From Heterodontus francisci (taxonomy: Eukaryota): a DNA stretch of 64,000 nt. Location of the stretch: assembly GCF_036365525.1 (NCBI RefSeq), contig NC_090377.1, forward strand, positions 103,492,265 to 103,556,264, read 5' to 3'. Made by a program: the position numbers and the translations under genes. Below are positions 1,215-62,661 of this stretch, piece by piece. Under the pieces are notes generated by a model. That model worked only from the letters and a program-made list of their open reading frames with translations, was not told where the DNA came from and searched no databases. Each line of letters begins with the position of its first letter. The stretch's first letter is position 1.

Positions 1215-2993
1215 GGTAACCAGGGAAAGGGTTGGCCCACTCAAGGACAGAGGAGGGAATCGATGTGTGGAGCCAGAGGAAATGGGCGAGGTCCTAAATA
1301 AGTACTTTGCATCAGTATTCACCAAAGAGAAGGACTTGGCGGATGATGAGTCTAGGAAAGGGCGTGTAGATATTCTGGGTCATGTCATTATCAAAAAGGA
1401 GGAGGTGTTGGGCGTCTTGCAAAGCATTAAGGTAGATAAGTCCCAGGGCCTGATGGGATCTACCCCAGAATACTGAGGGAGGCAAGGGAAGAAATTGCTG
1501 GGGCCTTGACAGAAATCTTTGTATCCTCATTGGCTACAGGTGAGGTCCCAGAGGACTGGAGGATAGCCAATGTTGTTCCTTTGTTTAAGAAGGGTAGCAA
1601 GGATAATCCAGGAAATTATAGGCTGGTGAGCCTTACGTCAGTGTTCGGGAAATTATTAGAGAGGATTCTTCGGGACAGGAATTACTCCCATTTGGAAACA
1701 AATGAACTTATTAGTGAGAGGCAGCATGGTTTTGTGAAGGGGAGGTCGTGTCTCACTAACTTGATTGAGTTTTTTGAGGAAGTGACGAAGATGATTGATG
1801 AAGGAAGGGCAGTGGATGTTGTCTATATGGACTTCGGTAAAGCCTTTGACAAGGTCCTTCATGGCAGACTGGTACAAAAGATGAAGTCACAAGAGATCAG
1901 AGGTGAGCTGGCAAGATGGATACAGAACTGGCTCGGTCATAGAAGACAGAGGGTAGTGGTGGAAGAGTGCTTTTCTGAATGGAGGGCTGTGACTAGTGGT
2001 GTTCCGCAGGGATCAGTGCTGGGACCTTTGCTGTTTGTAGTATATATAAATGATTTGGAGGAAAATGTAGCTGGTCTGATTAGTAAGTTTGCAGACAACA
2101 CAAAGGTTGGTGGAGTTGTGGATAGTGATGAGGATTGTCAGAGGATACAGCAGGATATAGATCGGTTGGAGACTTGGGCGGAGAAATGGCAAATGCAGTT
2201 TAATCCGGACAAATGTGAGGTAATGCATTTTGGAAGATCTAATACAGGTGGGAAGAATACAGTAAATGGCAGAACCTTAGGAGTATTGACAGGCAGAGAG
2301 ATCTGGGCATACAGGTCACTGAAAGTCGCAAGGCAGGTGGATAAGGTAGTCAAGAAAGCATACGGCATGCTTGCCTTCATCAGTCGGGGCATAGAGCATA
2401 AAAATTGGCAAATCATGCTGCAGCTGTACAGAACTTTAGTTCGGCCACACTTAGAATATTGCGTGCAATTCTGGTCGCCACACTACCAGAAGGACGTGGA
2501 GGCTTTGCAGAGGGTACAGAAGAGGTTTACCGGGATGTTGCCTGGTTTGAAGGGAATTAGCTTTGAGGAGAGGTTGGATAAACTCAGATTGTTTTCACTG
2601 GAACGACGGAGGTGGAGGGGCGACATGATAGAGGTTTACATAGTTATGAGTGGCATGGACAGAGTGGACAGAGTGGACATAGTCAGAAGCTTTTTCCCAG
2701 GGTGGAAGAGTCAGTTACTAGGGGACATAGGTTTAAGGTGAGAGGGGCAAAGTTTAGAGGGAATGTGCGAGGCAAGTTCTTTACACAGAGGGTGGTGAGT
2801 GCTTGGAACTTGCTGCCGGGGGAGGTGGTGGAAGCAGGTACGATAGCGATGTTTGAGAGGCATCTTGACAAATACATGAATAGGATGGGAATAGAGGGAT
2901 ACGGTCCCCGGAAGTGCAGAAGGTTTTAGTTTATCAAGATCGGCGCAGGCTTGGGGGGCCGAATGGCCTGTTCCTGTGCTGTACTGTTCTTTG
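1215..2993 (+). mobile_element. 5'-truncated CR1 LINE (ORF2 reverse transcriptase remnant plus 3' tail)
   Basis: ORF 1506-2741 with PEDWRIANVVPLFKKG, QHGFVKGRSCLTNLIEFF, GVPQGSVLGPLLF, KFADNTK; frameshifts; CR1 3' end GAATGGCCTGTTCCTGTGCTGTACTGTTCT. Confidence 0.93.
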
Positions 2994-21286: not shown

Positions 21287-22895
21287 CTAGAAATCCCTCA
21301 TACATCTGAAAGACCCGATAGTTGAGTTGTAGCCGCCCCAGTCACTGTATCTCCTGTATTCACCGGGTCTCATGAAGTACTGTCGGCCTCTGTAGTTGGG
21401 ATGTTCATAGAAGATCCAGTAACCGTCCATCACATGGCTGGAGTGAATATCACGGTAACGGAAACGATCAGAGACGGATGGGCAGTCATCCTGGAATTCC
21501 ATCATCTGTCCTCCAAAGTCAGGCCTCTCATAAATCTTCATTCTGTAGGAGCCTCCCCTGTACTGTAATAGAAATGAAATGACATTAGTGATAAAACTGC
21601 AAATATACATTTGGTATATGTAGAAAAAGAGAAACTTTGTAAAGGAAGGAATCTAATGGGGCCCAATGACGACATCAACAATGAGAGCAAAGCTGAGATG
21701 ATTTATTCACATCGATTCAATAGGTTAATTATGTTTGAGACTTGTTAACAGCAAGCAGCTTCGGCAATTTTATACTAAATCAGTGAATTATCTGTAATAG
21801 TGTACATTGGACTGATATTAGTTGGTGCATGCAGGTGGAGGTTTATCAATATCAATAAAAATCTAAATGTTATTCTAGTTCCCACTGTGATGAGGTTCCT
21901 TCTCTGTGTGGAGCAGCTTTATCTTTCCTACAATTAAAGTAAGACGAATGGGGTGGGTGCAAACATGTCTGTCAGCACGTTGTAGCCAGTCATAGAGTCA
22001 TTCAGCCCATCAAGTCCATGCTGGCTCTCTACAGAGCTATCTAGTCAGTATCACACCCCCATTCGATCCACACCTTAGTCTAGCTGCAGATGAATTTATT
22101 ACTTCCTACACTGTCAATGCTCCAATTTGGCTTTTGGTTCTGAATATCTGATTAATTATGAACAAATGCATCCAATTATATCTCAGATATTCAGGACTTT
22201 GCAATCGGCGACCATCGTACGACACTTAGAACTTCCTTCCCAGTTGATGCAATTATTGACTTAAGAACCAACCTGCATAAGTTAACTGCAGGTACAAAAT
22301 TACAAGGGCTGATGGTTAATTTCTGGCAGTGCCACAAATGGGTGGTAGTGGATCAGTAAATCAGGCAGGATGTGTGACAGGCAGACAATCCACGACCTGT
22401 TAATCACCACCGCTGAAAGTTAAAATCAGTCCTGTGGAAACAGCTGATAACTCTTCACTGCTGATGCACAGAAACTCAAATGTCACTGATCATTTTCGAA
22501 GTGTCAGTTTGGGTAGAACATCTAAGCCACCAAAGGTAACTCACATATGGGTAGCTGCGACATGACCTGATGCTGTCATTGAATCCCATCCAGCGCTGGT
22601 AGTCAGGATATTCGCCCCTGCTCAGAACATACTGGTATCCCATGTAATTGGGTCTCTCATACAGCACCCACCAGTCACTGTCAACACGGATGGAGTTACA
22701 GCGGCTGAAGTAAGAGTGCAGGTCAGCACAGTCACTACTGCACTCATAGTGCTGACCCTGGAAGTTCCTGTCCTCGTAAAAGATAATCTGTGGAAAGACA
22801 TAGGTTTGTAAATTCATAATTTCTCAAACTTGGCAATACTGGATGAAGAATTCCAATACAATATATAAACTCTGTGTTTTCCTTACCTTTCCCAT
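21287..22895 (-). CDS. Gamma-crystallin gene 1 (shark gamma-crystallin S-1-like / gammaM-type), 175 aa
   Basis: Exons 22887-22895 (MGK|GTAAG), 22545-22787 (243 bp, [11 protein letters not shown]...[10 protein letters not shown]|GTGAG), 21287-21562 (CAG|[18 protein letters not shown]...SFRCMRDF*); GT-AG phase-0 introns; four Greek-key motifs. Confidence 0.96.
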
Positions 22896-44907: not shown

Positions 44908-47858
44908 GCCAAGTATGTTTTCCCCTCTTGTTGGTTCCCTCACCACCTGCCGCATACCCAGTCTAGCAGATATGTCCTTTAGGACTCGGCCAGCTCGGTC
45001 AGTAGTGGTGCTACCGAGCCACTCTTGGTGATGGACTAAAACACAAAGTTATAAAAATTGGCTTTGTTTTTACAAAATGGACCTTTATTTTAAAAAGTGA
45101 ACAATGTGCTCCAAAATGGCCACCGAAGGTAAAAGACTTGACCTTAGCTTATTCAAATTGTCTGACAGGGACGAAGGAAAATCTTCAAAGCTAAGAAGGG
45201 GTCAGTTGTACCCATCCCACACCCATCCTGAAATCTTCCTGAGTTGAATGGTTCTTCTGAAACAAAGAAGGTGTGAAGTGGAAACAGCATAAACCTGATT
45301 ATTATCATCCTGAACCCATCAAAAGACACCATTGAATTGAATGGGGGGGGTTCTTCTAAAATAAAGAAGGTGTGGAGTGGCCACATCCTCGGCAATTGTC
45401 AGTCACTACAGGGAAGCAAATGCCTATCTCCCAGCAGAGGTGAAATGTCACGCAATTTTACCTTAAATGGGAGGTCTAGAGAGAGATAGACCAGAAAGAA
45501 GCATCCAAGAAGCTTTTCCAGCTAAGGGTCTGGGAGAATTTCAGCAAGCCAGAAGTGACATTCTCTGCTGTAGAATTCTACATCTGCACTTAAACAGCAG
45601 TGAATCAGAAGTGATCCACTGGCTTCAACTGAACTTTTAACCGAGAGAAGCCTACAAACACCACAGGCCTGCAACCAATGCGAGCTTGACTTCCGAGAGA
45701 ACTCAACAAGTTTACCGTGACCCTTGAAACCTAGCCCCACTTACCATCGCTTACCCCTTTTCCTCTCTATCTGTCTCTACTTATGTGTGTGCGCATGAAC
45801 GAATGTGTGAGTGGATGCAGTTGGGAGAATTTCGGGTTAAGACATATGTTGTGTGATTTCCTTTAAGAGTAATGTACCTTTAAGATCTTAGTATGCTAAT
45901 GAGCCAAGTGCTAGAATGTAGTCATTTGGCAACATGCCAGTTTCTGCTCCTGTAACACCAAGAGGCAAGGTCCTGTAATAGTTGGCTCTGTACTGTATAT
46001 ATTAGCTGCTTCATAAACCTGTTTTGAGATCTTCAAACAACCTGAACTCCACGTATATTTACGCTGCATCAGACAACATCAAAAAAGATTCTCACTGCAG
46101 CGTATTGATCGATAAGTAAATGATTTCCTGTTTTAACCCCACAAGAAAACCAGTAGCTGGCTTTTTTTGACAAATAAAACACAAAGGGATAAACCCAAAT
46201 AAAGGGATAAACCCCCAGTCAGCTGGGGGTGGAACAGTAACCATAACGATCTCCACAAGGAGATTGCTGGTCACTCCTACCAATGCTGTTGTGGACAGAT
46301 GCATCTGCGACAGGTAGATTGGTGAGGATGAGGCTGTAGTGTTGTTCTGTGTTCTTAAGTCTTCATTAAATTATAATTGTAGGCTTTTTATTCAGATTCA
46401 ACACAAACACTATTTATTGTCTTACTCATCTATATTGCATGAACTCAGGTCCAGGTCTTTTAATCATGTGTGTGTGTGTGTGCTCTCTGCAAACCATGTG
46501 TTGAATGTGCCTCTCAAAATGATGGCTCCTGCATTTGTGGGCTGATCTCTTAAAGGTGTGGTTTTCTTAAAGGTGAAGTCCTCATTACAGTGCATTACAG
46601 AGGACAAGTACATTTTTTTCTTTATGTTGCCACAAGTCCAGTCTGCCAGATATGTCATTTGGACTCAGCCAGCTTACTCAGTACTGATGGACATAAGTCC
46701 TCCACCTAAAGTACATTCTGTGCCCTTGCAACCCCACAGTGTCTTTTCCAAGTTATGTTCAGCATGGAGGAGTACTAATTCATCTGTTGAGAGAAGGCCA
46801 TAAGTGGTAGATAGTCACTGCTAATAAAGAAAGAAAGATTTGCATTTATATAGCAGCTTTCACACTCTCAGGATGTCTTAAGGCTCTTCAGATGTGTAAT
46901 ATAAGAAATAGATATATAGACTCACAGCAGAAATAGATAATTTTCTTTTAAAAAAACTGCTTGAGATATTTTTGTCATGTGATATGCTTCCTAGTGTGTT
47001 TTTCATTTAATGTGTCACATTCTCTTGACACATTCACTGTGTGGTTGCTCCTGCCCCACTTCCCCTAGGCCACAAGACCAAACATCCTCTGACGATCTCC
47101 CCTGCTCTGGTCCTGATCTTGCATCTTTCTCTAATTTCTCTCCTATCACCCCTCATGCCTTCTCCAAGCTCTTCTTGTCCATGGGAACCATCTCCTGATC
47201 CCTTGATCCTATTCTCACTAAATTGCTGAGCACCAGACTTCCCTTCTTGGCTCCTATGTTAGCTGATATTCTTAATGGTTCTCTCTCATTGGATTTTGTC
47301 TTCCTTTCCTTTGTATCTGTCTTTATCAACCCTGTGTTCAAGAAAACCTCAGATGAGGCAGTGTTGCAGGTGGGGACTATGTATGTTGCAAATTCCTATT
47401 TTTCAGTCGACAAATGCACTGGTGGAGCACTGGAGATTGATAGGCCAAGGGAATTGAATCATCACAGCCTCCGGAAGTGGAAGTATTCCTTATCGGAGGA
47501 CATTCAGGCCAAGAATAGGTGCCTAAAGGCCCCATACAAATGACATAATCTATTGAGTGCACAAACTCCAGCAAGATCAGCAGTGGATGGTGCTATTGGC
47601 CCATTCACAGCTTTTCTGGCAGTCTCATGGCCCACACATTTTCTGCTTCTCTATTTATTCACTTTAATGATAATCATATAGCTGAAATCATTGTGGTAAA
47701 ATATTCTGCATGAGACTACCAGATACCAGCACTGTTTTGGACAATTTGTATGAGGATTCAAAAATAAATCAATTGAACAAGAAGACAATGTAATAGAGAG
47801 TATTTTATTATGCTCATAAATAATTCAACAAAATTAGCTCATGTTTTACAATGACAGA

Positions 47859-49466: not shown

Positions 49467-49483
49467 TTTGAGATCACAGTTAG

Positions 49484-50057
49484 TGTTGGAGAATTTTCTG
49501 AGCTTTGCTAATTATTTCTTAACTTTGTAAAAATAGAGAAACGGGACGCAGCTTGTAGCTAACCAAACCAATGATCAGGAAATGTAGACAGAGCAACTGA
49601 CCACAATCATCTGGCTTAGGAAGGGACAGAGCTCATGATGGATTTTGGGGAAGTGAAAGCAGAATATTCGTCACTGACTCTTCCGCTTTTATCATATTTG
49701 TGCAACCTAGCCAGAAGTAACGGCCAAATATAGTACCTGGAGTGTGTACGTTAAATAGGGAACAATAGCTTGTTATGCTCGAACTAACGCTCTACTGACA
49801 TCGGACATTGCAAAGGGCACAGAGCTGCAGGTGGTCTTGTGGTTGTCCTGTGGTTTATGCTTAATTGTGAAACTGCTAGCTCTGCTTCTTTTATACTATA
49901 TAAGTCCACGGCGACTTGTAGTTGGCGGGAGCAGCACTGGACTGCATTTAGGTAAGGTGTGCACCCCCATGATATCATGCAATAAAAAGTTTGTTCTCAA
50001 CGTCTGAGTCCGGAGAATTTGTTCAACAATTGGGCACAATCTGGATTTTCTTCAACA
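49484..50057 (+). mobile_element. 574-bp solo LTR inserted in the 5'UTR of gene 4
   Basis: TGTTG...CAACA termini; TSD GTTAG (49479-49483 / 50058-50062); TATATAA 49897-49903 and AATAAA 49981-49986; absent from the other four units. Confidence 0.9.
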
Positions 50058-50897
50058 GTTAGCTTGTAACGAGCTGAATGTTTCACTGCTTCACACAGCT
50101 TGGTATTTATATGTTGGGTAAAATGGCTTTGCTGAGCTCTTCTTTTGTTAGTTTAATGATTGCAATGGTTTGAAATCAGCATAAAAGCAGCAAAACACAT
50201 GACATCTACACTCATTGTAAAGAAAATGAATTTAAGGCACCTATGTCCCATTGATTGCATTTTGCCTTCATGTCTTTTTAATTGTGTGACAATACATTGG
50301 AAGCCATTGTGCTCCCTACACTCTGCTTCCACTGAAATTCTCAAACAGTTGTCATTACACATTCAACCAGGTATTTTTCCAGCATTTCAGTGTAATGGCT
50401 GAAGTTTACTCCAAAACTGGTCAAAATGCAGATGTACATATCCAGAACAAGTTGCTTTCTACATAATCGACAGAAGTATAACTGTCTGTGTATTTAGATT
50501 TGAGAATGTGCTTCAAAGTTCATAAGCTTTTATCACTGCATGTATTTATTTGGTGACATTGCCACTGCAATTTTGAGGGTGGTATTTATTAACACCGGTC
50601 ACAGCCCATTCACGGTTTCATATTTTAATCAGCGATATTTTGTTATGTACTACCTTTCACTTTGTTATAAATTTCAGTTTTGCTGAAGTCATATCAGAAC
50701 AGTAAAGAGGATAATAGAAAGGCAGATGGTCGTGCAATCAAAATAATTTGTAGAATGTGCATACTGGGGGAGGGTAGTTGGATTCTTTAGTGGGTACTAA
50801 ATAAAAAGGAGAAAAGAGACTCTGGGATGACCCTGTTCAAGGGATACAAATCAATTGCAATCTAATACATTTTTGACATAATCACAAATATGCTTAC

Positions 50898-56900: not shown

Positions 56901-57949
56901 GATAGTCACTGCTAATAAAGAAAGAAAGATTTGCATTTATATAGCAGCTTTCACAATCTCAGGATGTCTTAAGGCTCTTCAGATGTGTAATATAAGAAAT
57001 AGAAATATAGACTCACAGCAGAAATAGATAATTTTCTTTAAAAAAAACTGCTTGAGATATTTTTGTCATGTGATATGCTTCCTAGTGTGTTTTTCATTTA
57101 ATGTGTCACATTCTCTTGACACATTCACTGTGTGGTTGCTCCTGCCCCACTTCCCCTAGATCACAAGACCAAACATCCTCTGACGATCTCCCCTGCTCTG
57201 GTCCTGATCTTGCATCTTTCTCTAATTTCTCTCCTATCACCCCTCATGCCTTCTCCAAGCTCTTCTTGTCCATGGGAACCATCTCCTGATCCCTTGATCC
57301 TATTCTCACTAAATTGCTGAGCACCAGACTTCCCTTCTTGGCTCCTATGTTAGCTGATATTCTTAATGGTTCTCTCTCATTGGATTTTGTCTTCCTTTCC
57401 TTTGTATCTGTCTTCATCAACCCTGTGTTCAAGAAAACCTCAGATGAGGCAGTGTTGCAGGTGGGGACTATGTATGTTGCAAATTCCTATTTTTCAGTCG
57501 ACAAATGCACTGGTGGAGCCCTGGAGACTGATAGGCCAAGGGAATTGAATCATCACAGCCTCCGGAAGTGGAAGTATTCCTTATCGGAGGACATTCAGGC
57601 CAAGAATAGGTGCCTAAAGGCCCCATACAAATGACATAATCTATTGAGTGCACAAACTCCAGCAACACCAGCAGTGGATGGTGCTATTGGCCCATTCACA
57701 GCTTTTCTGGCAGTCTCCTGGCCCACACATTTTCTGCTTCTCTATTTATTCACTTTAATGATAATCATATAACTGAGATCATTGTGGTAAAATATTCTGC
57801 ATGAGACTACCAGATACCAGCACTGTTTTGGACAATTTGTATGAGGATTCAAAAATAAATCAATTGAACAAGAAGACAATGTAATAGAGAGTATTTTATT
57901 ATGTTCATAAATAATTCAACAAAATTAGCTCATGTTTTACAATGAGAGA

Positions 57950-60900
57950 CTAGAAATCTCTCATTCGTCTGAAAGATCCAATTGTCGAACAAGAGGCACC
58001 CCAGTCACTGAATCTCCTGTATTCACCGGGTCTCATGAAGTACTGTCGGCCTCTGTAGTTGGGATGTTCATAGAAGATCCAGTAACCGTCCATCACATGG
58101 CAGGAGTGAATGTCACGGTAACGGAAACTATCATAGACGGATGGACAGTCATCCTGGAATTCCATCATCTGTCCTCCAAAGTCAGGTCTCTCGTAAATCT
58201 TCATTCTGTAGGAGCCTCCCCTGTACTGTAATAGAAATGAAATGACATTAGTGATAAAACTACAAATATACATTTGGTATATGTAGACAAAGAGAAACTT
58301 GGTAAAGGAAGGAATCTAATGGGGCCCAATGATGACATCAACAATGAGAGCAAAGCTGAGATGATTTATTCACATCGATTCAATCGGTTAATTATGTTTG
58401 AGACTTGTTAACAGCAAGCAGCTTTGGCAATTTTATACTAAATCAGTGAATTATCTATAAGAGTGTACATTGGACTGATATTAGTTGGTGCATGCAGGTG
58501 GAGGTTTAGCAATATCAATAAAAATCTAAATGTTATTCTAGTTCCCACTGTGATGAGGTTCCTTCTCTGTGTGGAGCAGCTTTATCTTTCCTACAATTAA
58601 AGTAAGACGAATGGGGTGGGTGCAAACATGTCTGTCAGCACGTTGTAGCCAGTCATAGAGTCATTCAGCCCATCAAGTCCATGCTGGCTCTCTACAGAGC
58701 TATCTAGTCAGTATCACACCCCCATTCGATCCACACCTTAGTCTAGCTGCAGATAAATTTATTACTTCCTACACTGTCAATGCTCCAATTTGGCTTTTGG
58801 TTCTGAATATCTGATTAATTATGAACAAATGCATCCAATTATATCTCAGATATTCAGGACTTTGCAATAGGCTACCATCGTACGACACTTAGAACTTCTT
58901 TCCCAGTTGATGCAATTATTGACTTAAGAACCAACCCGTATAAATTAACTGCAGGTACAAAATTACAAGGGCTGATAGTAATTTCTGGCAGTGCCACAAA
59001 TGGGTGGTAGTGGATCAGTAAATCAGGCAGGATGTGTGACAGGCAGACAATCCATGACCTGTTAATCACCACCGCTGAAAGTTAAAATCAGTCCTGTGGA
59101 AACAGCTGATGACTCTTCACTGCTGATGCACATAAACTCAAATGTCACTGATCATTTTCTAAGTGTCACTTTGGGTAGAACATCTAAGCCACCAAAGGTA
59201 ACTCACATATGGGTAGCTGCGACATGACCTGATGCTGTCATTGAATCCCATCCAGCGCTGGTAGTCAGGATATTCGCCCCTGCTCAGAACATACTGGTAT
59301 CCCATGTAATTGGGTCTCTCATACACCACCCACCAGTCACTGTCAACACGGATGGAGTTACAGCGGCTGAAGAAAGAGTGCAGGTCAGCGCAGTCAGTAC
59401 TGCACTCATAGTGCCGACCCTGGAAGTTCCTGTCCTCGTAAAAGATAATCTGTGGAAAGACATAGGTTTGTAAATTCATAATTTCTCAAACTTGGCAATG
59501 CTGGATGAAGAATTCCAATACAATATTTTTTTTTTTATTTCCAAAATATACTTTATTCATAAAAATCTGTAAAAATTACATTGCCAAACAGTTTCCAAAC
59601 AGCACCAAAAAATACAAACATTGCAAGGGAGATCAGTTTCCTTCAATACTGTCATGAGTTTCTTCCCAACCCTTCCATTTCACAATTGTCATGTCAATTA
59701 CAGTTTTACATTTACAGCAATTCAGAATATTAACGATACAGTTCGAGGGGTTTCCCATTGATCCAGCCCCTCAGTCCAGCTTGGTGGGGGAACCTTACAC
59801 TGTGGTCTTTCCCCATTGAGCCTTTGCTGCGGCTGCCCCAAGCTTTAGTGCATCCCTCAGCACGTAGTCCTGGACCTTGGAATGTGCCAGTCTGCAACAT
59901 TCGTTGGTGGACAACTCTTTGCGCTGGAAGACCAGCAAGTTTCGGGCAGACCAAAGGGCGTCTTTCACCGAATTTATCGTCCTCCAGCAGCAGTTGATGT
60001 TTGTCTCGGTGTGCGTCCCTGGGAACAGCCCGTAGAGCACAGACTCCTGTGTTACAGAGCTGCTTGGGATGAACCTTGACAAAAACCACTGCATCTCTTT
60101 CCACACCTGCTTTGCAAAGGCACATTCCAGGAGGAGGTGGGCGACCGTCTCTTCCCCACCACAGCCAACGCGGGGGCACTGTGCGGAGGGGGCGAGACTT
60201 CGGGTGTGCATGAAGGATCTGACGGGGAGGGCCCTTCTCACCACCAGCCAAGCTACGTCTTGGTGCTTGTTTGAAAGTTCTGGTGATGAGGCATTCCGCC
60301 AAATGACTTTGACGGTCTGCTCGGGGAACCATCCGACAGGATCCACCGTTTCCTTTTCCCGTAGGGCCTTGAGGACATTCCGTGCAGACCACTGCCTGAT
60401 GGACCGGTGGTCAAAGGTGTTTTTCCGCAGAAACTGCTCCACGAAGGATAGGTGGTACGGCGCCGCCCAACTGCATGGTGCGTTCCGCGGCAATGTGACC
60501 AGGCCCATCCTTCGCAACACCGGGGACAGATAGAACCTCAGCACGTAGTGACACTTGGAGTTTGCGTACTGGGGATCTACACATAGCTTGATGCAGCCGC
60601 ACACGAAGGTGGTCATCAGGATGAGGGCCACGTTGGGTACATTTTTCCCACCCATGTCCAGAGATTTGAACATCGTGTCCCTCCGGACCCGGTCCATTTT
60701 AGATCCCCAGACGAAGCGGAAAATGGCTCGGGTGACTGCCACGGCGCAGGAGTGGGGTATGGACCAGACCTGCGCCACGTAGAGCAACAACGTGAGCGCC
60801 TCGCACCTGATGACCAGGTTCTTACCCACAATGGAGAGAGATCGCTGCCCCCACATGCCCAACTTTTGTCGTACCTTGGCTACTCGCTCCTCCCATGTCT

Positions 60901-61809
60901 TGGTGCACGCCCCGGCACTTCCGAACCATATCCCCAGCACCTTCAGGTAATCTGACCTGACGGTGAAGGGGACAAAGGATCGGTCAGCCCAGTTCCCAAA
61001 GAACATGGCCTCGCTCTTGCCGTGGTTAACTTTGGCTCCCGAGGCCAGTTCGAACTGGTCGCAGATGCTCATCAGTCTGCGCACGGACAGCGGATCCGAG
61101 CAGAAGACGGCGACGTCATCCATGTACAGGGAGGTTTTGACCTGAGTGCCTCCGCTGCCTGGGATTGTCACCCCTCTTATGCTCGCATCCTTCCTAATAG
61201 ACTCAGCAAAGGGTTCAATACAGCAAACAAACAAGACCGGGGACAGAGGACAGCCCTGTCTGACTCCAGATTTGATCGGGAAACTTTCAGATTCCCACCC
61301 GTTGATTGACACTGCGCTACTGATGTTTGTGTAGAGCAGTTGGATGCAATTGCAGATTCCCTCCCCAAACCCCATTTTGGAAAGCACGTCCATCATGTAG
61401 GTGTGCGATATCCTGTCAAAAGCCTTCTCCTGGTCCAGGCCGATGAGGCAGGTGTCCACCCTCCTGTCCCGTACGTAGGCGATCGTATCCCTGAGTAGCG
61501 CGAGACTATCAGAGATCTTCCTGCCGGGTACAGTACAGGTCTGATCGGGGTGAATCACCAACTCCAGAGCAGACCTGACTCGACTGGCTATGACTTTGGA
61601 CAGAATCTTGTAATCAACATTAAGCAGTGAGATGGGCCGCCAATTTCTGATTTCTGCCCTCTCCCCCTTCTGCTTGTAAATGAGGGTGATGATGCCTTTT
61701 CTCATGGTCTCTGACATGCTGCCGGCCAGGAGCATACTCTCGTATACTTCCAGCAGGTCCGGGCCGACAATACAATATATAAACTCTGTGTTTTCCTTAC
61801 CTTTCCCAT
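57950..61809 (-). CDS. Gamma-crystallin gene 5, 175 aa (intron 1 expanded by a Tx1/L1 insertion)
   Basis: Exons 61801-61809, 59207-59449, 57950-58225; splice sites intact; intron 1 is 2351 bp versus 99 bp in the other copies. Confidence 0.92.
59526..61767 (-). mobile_element. Young 5'-truncated Tx1/L1-clade non-LTR retrotransposon
   Basis: TSD CAATACAATA(T) at 59516-59525 and 61768-61777; poly(A) tail (T-run 59526-59536); AATAAA 59552-59557; GC/CpG-rich uninterrupted ORF2. Confidence 0.95.
59795..61735 (-). CDS. Tx1-like ORF2 C-terminal part: reverse transcriptase plus CCHC zinc finger (no endonuclease), 646 aa
   Basis: [66 protein letters not shown]; no stops or frameshifts. Confidence 0.85.
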   Translation of the reverse strand: MLLAGSMSETMRKGIITLIYKQKGERAEIRNWRPISLLNVDYKILSKVIASRVRSALELVIHPDQTCTVPGRKISDSLALLRDTIAYVRDRRVDTCLIGLDQEKAFDRISHTYMMDVLSKMGFGEGICNCIQLLYTNISSAVSINGWESESFPIKSGVRQGCPLSPVLFVCCIEPFAESIRKDASIRGVTIPGSGGTQVKTSLYMDDVAVFCSDPLSVRRLMSICDQFELASGAKVNHGKSEAMFFGNWADRSFVPFTVRSDYLKVLGIWFGSAGACTKTWEERVAKVRQKLGMWGQRSLSIVGKNLVIRCEALTLLLYVAQVWSIPHSCAVAVTRAIFRFVWGSKMDRVRRDTMFKSLDMGGKNVPNVALILMTTFVCGCIKLCVDPQYANSKCHYVLRFYLSPVLRRMGLVTLPRNAPCSWAAPYHLSFVEQFLRKNTFDHRSIRQWSARNVLKALREKETVDPVGWFPEQTVKVIWRNASSPELSNKHQDVAWLVVRRALPVRSFMHTRSLAPSAQCPRVGCGGEETVAHLLLECAFAKQVWKEMQWFLSRFIPSSSVTQESVLYGLFPGTHTETNINCCWRTINSVKDALWSARNLLVFQRKELSTNECCRLAHSKVQDYVLRDALKLGAAAAKAQWGKTTV

Positions 61810-62661
61810 TTTGAGATCACAGTTAGCTTGTAACTAGCTGAATGTTTCATTGCTTCACACATCTTGGTATTTATATGTTGGGTAAAATGGCTTTGCTGAG
61901 CTTTTCTTTTGTTATTTTAATGATTGCAATGGTTTGAAATCAGCATAAAAGCAGCAAAACACATGACATATACACTCATTGTAAAGAAAATGAATTTAAG
62001 GCACCTATGTCCCATTGATTGCATTTTGCCTTCATGTCTTTTTAATTGTGTGACAATACATTGGAAGCCATTGTGCTCCCTACACTCTGCTTCCACTGAA
62101 ATTCTCAAACAGTTGTCATTACACATTCAACCAGGTATTTTTCCAGCATTTCAGTGTCATGGCTGAAGTTTACTCCAAAACTGGTCAAAATGCAGATGTA
62201 CATATCCAGAACAAGTTGCTTTCTACATAATCGACAGAAGTATAACTGTCTGTGTATTTAGATTTGAGAATGTGCTTCAAAGTTCATAATCTTTTATCAC
62301 TGCATGTATTTATTTGGTGACATTGCCACTGCAATTTTGAGGGTGGTATTTATTAACACCGGTCACAGCCCATTCACGGTTTCATATTTTAATCAGCGAT
62401 ATTTTGTTATGTACTACCTTTCACTTTGTTATAAATTTCAGTTTTGCTGAAGTCATATCAGAACAGTGAAGAGGATAATAGAAAGGCAGATGGTCGTGTA
62501 ATCAAAGTAATTTGTAGAATGTGCATACTGGGGGAGGGTAGTTGGATTCTTTAGTGGGTACTAAATAAAAAGGAGAAAAGAGACTCTGGGATGACCCTGT
62601 TCAAGGGATACAAATCAATTGCAATCTAATACATTTTTGACATAATCACAAATATGCTTAC

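Follow-up and report, generated by a model that had tools for sequence, protein, structure and literature searches.

A stretch of 64,000 nucleotides from Heterodontus francisci (contig NC_090377.1, positions 103,492,265 to 103,556,264 of the forward strand; hereafter the window, numbered from its first letter) contains five tandem gamma-crystallin genes, and intron 1 of the fifth (gene 5) holds a 5′-truncated copy of a long interspersed nuclear element (LINE) of the Tx1/L1 group. It is an ordinary insertion, which works like any other 5′-truncated L1/Tx1-group insertion. We consider it probable that one copy of a very high-copy shark family landed in one of the five crystallin copies, that its reading frame is open through youth, that the encoded product lacks N-terminal parts required for reverse transcription, and that a redundant gene has lost part of its output as a result. 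As it stands the insertion matters little, being one of very many truncated shark LINE copies in a gain-and-loss gene array. If it is true that the lens makes a reverse transcriptase (RT) fragment from it, this would be an early step in the recruitment of a retroelement into a crystallin locus and of interest to lens and transposon specialists.

Structure of the insertion

The insert comprises 2,241 bp and lies in sense to gene 5, both being on the minus strand. Its parts are as follows.

59527..61767, minus strand: 5′-truncated Tx1/L1-group LINE copy (3′ 58% of open reading frame 2 [ORF2], 3′ untranslated region [UTR], A tail), missing from genes 1–4
61768..61778, minus strand: 5′ copy of the 11-bp target-site duplication (TSD); base 61768 fits the element too (1-nt microhomology)
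59516..59526, minus strand: 3′ copy of the 11-bp TSD
59552..59557, minus strand: AATAAA of the element, followed by a 10-A tail at 59527–59536

The TSD is exact over 11 bp, and the empty site is found in all four of the other crystallin copies; the empty-site joint is also present in DNA run X1. Judged from the sequence, an exact 11-bp repeat at both tail and breakpoint, together with four empty paralogous sites, is not due to chance. The marks of target-primed reverse transcription are found throughout: a TSD with an empty site elsewhere, an A tail past a polyadenylation [poly(A)] signal, and truncation within a longer family sequence, family contigs in X1 continuing beyond 61768. Reverse transcription of this kind would have halted approximately 2.2 kb from the 3′ end. 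The insert is separated from the donor of the intron by 33 nt and from its acceptor by 66 nt, and is situated approximately 80 nt downstream of the inferred start of gene 5. The coordinates and the empty paralogous sites thus bear out an earlier note on this DNA, made from the sequence alone, which had described a copy with a perfect TSD, poly(A) signal and tail in intron 1 on the strand of gene 5.

An assembly artefact was ruled out, because the TSD, the tail and the microhomology fit a true insertion. Filled-site junctions were not found among the rows listed for DNA runs X1 and X2, and the insertion may be polymorphic between animals. X1, whose contigs drop variants, showed two gene-5-specific intron stretches and none of three gene-5-private alleles. 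Part of the target duplication (61768–61778) resembles family sequence approximately 20 nt upstream of the breakpoint, as judged from loose ends in X1; microhomology at this site was possibly used in joining the 5′ end.

Retained and missing parts of ORF2

The coding part of the insert was compared with P0259, a full-length relative of 1,138 amino acids (aa), and with human ORF2p.

59795..61735, minus strand: 646-aa open frame, equivalent to ORF2 residues 492–1138 of P0259, without endonuclease (EN), linker/Cryptic, N-terminal extension (NTE)/Z and motif 0
61115..61126, minus strand: YMDD catalytic motif
60122..60178, minus strand: CCHC knuckle (C-x4-C-x7-H-x4-C)

P0259 places the element in the L1/Tx1 group with its apurinic/apyrimidinic endonuclease (APE)-type ORF2: it has an N-terminal APE endonuclease (Exo_endo_phos, 10–231), an RT (RVT_1) and a C-terminal CCHC (zf-RVT). 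The insert aligns to it from V482 to the end (residue 1138) at 76% identity, gap-free and colinear, with the methionine of the open frame at residue 492. The 646-aa ORF matches RVT_1 over positions 6–204 of 205 (E 3.8e-37) as well as zf-RVT/CCHC, and it contains YxDD and RT motifs 1–7; no match to an endonuclease domain was found in it. These matches confirm the earlier description of an ORF with YMDD and CCHC but no endonuclease. Its description as an intact RT does not hold, because the insert starts at V482 of P0259, past the motif-0 loop, and the NTE and the start of the fingers are gone.

In the alignment to solved structures, the ORF begins at approximately residue 499 of human ORF2p (match to residues 490–882, E ~6e-54), and the conserved KxPGxDG motif-0 loop maps just upstream of the breakpoint (human ~469–475, with PGPDG at ~471–475, counted by hand from the alignment). 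On this alignment the front ~40% of ORF2 is missing, comprising the NTE and the start of the fingers as well as the endonuclease. The NTE/Z, the PGxDG of motif 0 and the linker/Cryptic region, which belong to a functional RT of the non-long terminal repeat (LTR) type, all lie upstream of the breakpoint. In human ORF2p the tower spans residues 239–440 and the R0 loop covers the template like a lid (PMC10830420), while the NTE (formerly Z) touches both template and complementary DNA (cDNA) (PMC10830416). In the LEAP assay, human ORF2p 349–1275 is reported to give no cDNA alone and to depend on Cryptic supplied in trans (PMC13103738), and this fragment reaches approximately 150 residues further forward than the equivalent of the 646-aa ORF. 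Because NTE/Z, motif 0 and linker/Cryptic are missing and the longer human fragment already fails alone, the 646-aa fragment is likely to be inactive as a reverse transcriptase.

Origin of the open frame

Differences between the ORF and its family in X1 were scored from 40 of the 140 rows of the difference table, which gave 20 ORF differences; those departing from at least 95% of family depth were called near-private. The nine near-private changes (6 nonsynonymous, 3 synonymous) agree with a neutral expectation of 68–70% nonsynonymous (binomial p=0.72), and some of them hit residues conserved in shark relatives; they look neutral, with no sign of constraint at n=9. The 11 differences shared with part of the family (3 nonsynonymous, 8 synonymous) depart from neutrality (p=0.003), a ratio to be expected of lineages that need to stay active.

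An open frame of this composition stays stop-free after 10–30 neutral substitutions with a probability of 0.68–0.31 (substitutions only), and an in-frame ATG lies at most 40 nt away at 26% of the possible truncation points in the ORF. Selection is therefore not needed to explain the open frame or the ATG close to it. The insertion is private to one of five recent crystallin duplicates, and the frame is likely to be open only since the copy is young.

The element family

DNA run X1 gave 38,006 contigs on 57750–62300. The summed depth over the element was 0.5–1.1 million, declining from 3′ to 5′, and that of the contigs listed over the upstream flank and the introns of the crystallins was 8–31; other family copies in X1 break at scattered points. 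These data point to a family of roughly tens of thousands of copies, most of them truncated. The closest named protein relatives are from cartilaginous fish, namely a Heterodontus francisci model (93% over 242 aa), Cetorhinus (84%) and Hemiscyllium (78%), and the exact 646-aa ORF was not found in the protein collection searched. In an RT tree of 21 rows, the element formed a clade with proteins from Mobula and a skate cluster (support 100/99). A zebrafish protein auto-named TX1 149 kDa shares 47% identity with the element across the RT region. The element probably belongs to the Tx1 clade proper, on a tree made up entirely of auto-named proteins, without curated Tx1 references (Tx1L, Keno, Kibi, Koshi) or human L1. 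Literature searches, none of which was aimed at the family name and which did not cover subscription papers or Repbase, found no description of the locus or the family.

Expected fate of gene 5 transcripts

The gene 5 parts that flank the insert are given below.

61801..61875, minus strand: gene 5 TATA box (61875), exon 1 (ATG GGA AAG) and GT donor, intact; start at ~61845 inferred from TATA spacing
59207..59449, minus strand: gene 5 exon 2 (Crystall domain), acceptor intact
57900..58225, minus strand: gene 5 exon 3 through its own AATAAA

The insertion has lengthened intron 1 from the 99 nt seen in genes 1–4 to 2,351 nt. The donor (AAG/GTAAGG), the native acceptor, the TATA box and the coding exons are all intact. 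The majority of gene 5 transcripts would still splice out the 2,351-nt intron, and some would end at the AATAAA of the element or be mis-spliced, giving only a 35-aa peptide. The insertion was presumably tolerated because the crystallin cluster holds many copies. A cryptic CAG acceptor is found at 59500, 51 nt ahead of the native one. The greater intron length makes it usable, and its use would add an in-frame stop; a gene-5-private base change lies directly after this CAG.

If the intron is not removed, translation from the crystallin ATG runs into the element.

61702..61809, minus strand: 35-codon frame of unspliced gene 5, ending in AACQRP and a stop; it spans the RT ATG at 61735, and its TGA overlaps RT Met11 (ATG 61705)

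The crystallin ATG (61809) and the RT-frame ATG (61735) are 74 nt apart in different frames; this layout and the AACQRP ending of the unspliced frame were read correctly in the earlier note. With A at −3 and G at +4, the crystallin ATG stands in the optimal context for a start codon. Its 35-codon frame reads through the RT-frame ATGs at 61735 and 61717 and stops at 61704 over a third at 61705. Because the upstream context is optimal and this frame overlaps the RT ATG, both leaky scanning to 61735 and reinitiation there are disfavoured, and leaky scanning was ruled out as the main route. ATG 61735 itself has A at −3, and Met11 has the context ACC-ATG. At 61702–61705 the crystallin-frame stop overlaps the RT-frame ATG in an ATGA stop-start layout. 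Stop-start overlaps are able to couple translation, as is known from other retroelements and viruses. Reinitiation of this kind at Met11 could be the only attractive route to the RT frame, and its product would be shorter still. No in-frame acceptor was found near the ORF start (first 900 nt) among the best 15 of 61 candidates, ranked by a crude heuristic score.

Alternative explanations

Partial loss of gene 5 output is the most likely effect when set against full trapping and no effect. Full trapping, in which nearly all gene 5 transcripts end at the element AATAAA and leave gene 5 silent, on its way to becoming a pseudogene, shares the origin proposed above and differs in degree only; we regard it as somewhat unlikely. 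The insert is a sense LINE close to both splice sites, and mammalian LINEs inserted in sense near exons are under-represented in the fixed class and over-represented in the mutagenic and disease classes (PMC3088655). Intronic L1s are also reported to cause retention and cryptic polyadenylation (PMC3192792). The U/G-rich TSD after the tail could serve as a downstream element, and use of the CAG at 59500 would bring in an in-frame stop. Against full trapping, all core splice signals remain, and the native acceptor lies only ~100 nt past the AATAAA, so that splicing could compete. Moreover, gene 5 has no private changes in ~519 coding nt (exons 2–3) as against four in ~1,300 non-coding nt, where 1.6 coding changes were expected (P ~0.2, by hand, with gene conversion as a confounder), which lends weak support to continued use. 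Efficient removal of the enlarged intron, with gene 5 expression similar to that of the adjacent genes, would agree with the intact donor, acceptor, TATA box and coding exons and with an upstream 2.2 kb that is 99.5% identical to the gene 2 counterpart; we hold it to be unlikely, because the position, orientation and poly(A) signal of the insert put it in the class most often harmful (PMC3088655).

The earlier note had proposed that termination at the element AATAAA could silence gene 5 like a gene trap, which is plausible, and also that a lens mRNA for an EN-less RT could be translated by leaky scanning. A working enzyme is not supported, given the missing domains, and the optimal overlapping upstream frame argues against leaky scanning. 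The strong form of this proposal, or an early domestication, would have an EN-less fragment translated in the lens from a trapped crystallin–LINE mRNA, with an activity or a role. The 646 open codons, the retained YMDD and CCHC, the A at −3 of ATG 61735 and the ATGA overlap with Met11, which could permit stop-start reinitiation, speak for it. We nevertheless judge it highly improbable: NTE/Z, motif 0 and the linker are missing (PMC13103738), the upstream ATG is optimal with an overlapping frame, the private changes look neutral and in part strike residues kept in shark relatives, only one of five recent duplicates has the insert, and the best 15 of 61 acceptors offer no in-frame entry within the first 900 nt of the ORF. 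Equally little credence is given to its most elaborate version, in which lens fibre cells would make abundant capped, polyadenylated crystallin–LINE mRNA and a restart at the ATGA (Met11) would yield a ~636-aa RT–thumb–CCHC fragment that accumulates in a low-turnover tissue, either as a passenger among the lens proteins or acting on full-length ORF2 as its inhibitor or partner. It is also very unlikely that the family is directed to positions just behind active promoters. The insertion does lie ~80 nt behind an inferred start, and many Tx1 families are target-specific (PMC4494074). On the other side, other copies have mixed 3′ flanks (with a loose-end agreement of 0.38–0.67 in five rows at 59528–59531, among 24 of 1,169 rows listed for X1), one target could hardly account for most copies of so abundant a family, and germ-line activity of a lens promoter is improbable.

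Several points weigh against our preferred explanation, a young truncated insertion that partially lowers gene 5 output and encodes an inactive fragment. The split between spliced and trapped gene 5 transcripts is a prediction from sequence, and the inactivity is extrapolated from human L1. Human ORF2p with tower deletions (302–389) is reported to be still active as an RT in vitro (PMC10830420), and an R2 RT became more active with two motif-0 substitutions and less active with changes within PGPDG itself (PMC8857657); none of these constructs removes the whole region absent from the 646-aa ORF. The contrast between the 6:3 and 3:8 ratios of nonsynonymous to synonymous changes is not significant (Fisher p=0.17), only 20 ORF differences being visible, and the summed contig depth behind the estimated family size is not equal to copy number.

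The gamma-crystallin array and the insertion in gene 4

All five genes are encoded on the minus strand and follow one another as tandem units of 7.6–12.3 kb, with ATGs at 22895, 32394, 41910, 49466 and 61809 for genes 1–5. Their gene bodies differ at 23–68 positions per ~1,816 aligned bases, the copies being 96–99% identical. Exon 3 ends (window 21287–58216) are of two types, separating genes 1–2 from genes 3–5, and the exon 1 and promoter variants, unlike the exon 3 types, group genes 2 and 5; this mosaic suggests gene conversion or unequal crossing over. Unit 4 lacks ~1.9 kb that units 2, 3 and 5 have (window 45029–45036). Elsewhere, window 1440–2741 holds a 433-aa stop-free frame of another LINE RT, 27% identical to the Tx1 ORF, which we take from its motifs to be CR1/L2-like.

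Gene 4 has an insertion of its own.

49484..50057, plus strand: 574-bp solo LTR, antisense, in the gene 4 5′ UTR; 5-bp TSD at 49479–49483 and 50058–50062

The insert ends in TG...CA. Because other copies have, on the plus strand, a primer-binding-site-like stretch after the LTR and a purine tract before it, we take this one to be a solo LTR antisense to gene 4; the primer-binding-site-like stretch presumably corresponds to tRNA-Ser. Two of the five recent copies thus carry independent insertions at most 42 nt from the ATG, 17 nt upstream in gene 4 and 42 nt downstream in gene 5, which could reflect chance, relaxed selection or an open site. We count the unrelated insertion in gene 4 in favour of our preferred explanation.

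Among the runs listed for 57800–59620, none is recorded as RNA. Runs X6, X7 and X8 are RNA by inference and come from one sample of one study. They do not look like lens, because crystallin depth in them is 6–29 as against >200,000 summed in X5, from another organism. Each contains a single crystallin contig that is spliced, both introns being marked by CT..AC joints, and gene-4 alleles were found in all three. The X6 and X7 contigs show zero differences to gene 4 exon 2 and extend 55 nt upstream, 29 nt of these inside the LTR, an overlap below the 31-letter bridging threshold. The LTR family is abundant in X6–X8, with a summed depth of up to 97,000 in X7 as compared with ~600–55,000 in DNA run X2. 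These contigs, which give no start site, suggest that gene 4 is probably transcribed from the LTR at a low level in non-lens tissue; the source of the gene-4-type contig could also be a gene-4-like copy outside the window. No RNA contigs were found on intron 1 in X5, X6 or X7, which says nothing on gene 5.

The array offers a natural experiment: five crystallin genes of 96–99% identity, of which gene 5 has a sense LINE (intron 1) and gene 4 an antisense LTR (5′ UTR).

Comparison with known systems

With human L1 ORF2p (PDB 8UW3/8SXT) and truncated insertions of the Tx1 clade (PMC4494074), the insert shares a TSD, an A tail, an internal poly(A) signal, 5′ truncation and the RT–thumb–CCHC order. 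Unlike those systems, it belongs to a chondrichthyan subfamily with an ORF2 of 1,138 aa, and a single fixed target is not apparent among the 24 of 1,169 rows listed. It resembles mutagenic or hypomorphic sense intronic LINEs (PMC3088655; PMC3192792) in its sense orientation, its distance of <100 nt to exons and its own poly(A) signal; it differs from them in that the 2.2-kb insert is promoterless and below the >5 kb class of PMC3088655, and in that its host is one of many near-identical copies.

Shark gamma-crystallin clusters are described as birth-and-death arrays, and the catshark has 41 gamma-crystallin genes, 40 of them in a single cluster that is a duplication hotspot with probable pseudogenisation (PMC11979771). 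The present array is like this jawed-vertebrate hotspot in its recent tandem copies, its three exons and the signs of decay in some copies. The available text of that report describes a non-coding pseudogene and not transposon hits, whereas here two of the five copies each have an insertion of their own at most 42 nt from the start codon.

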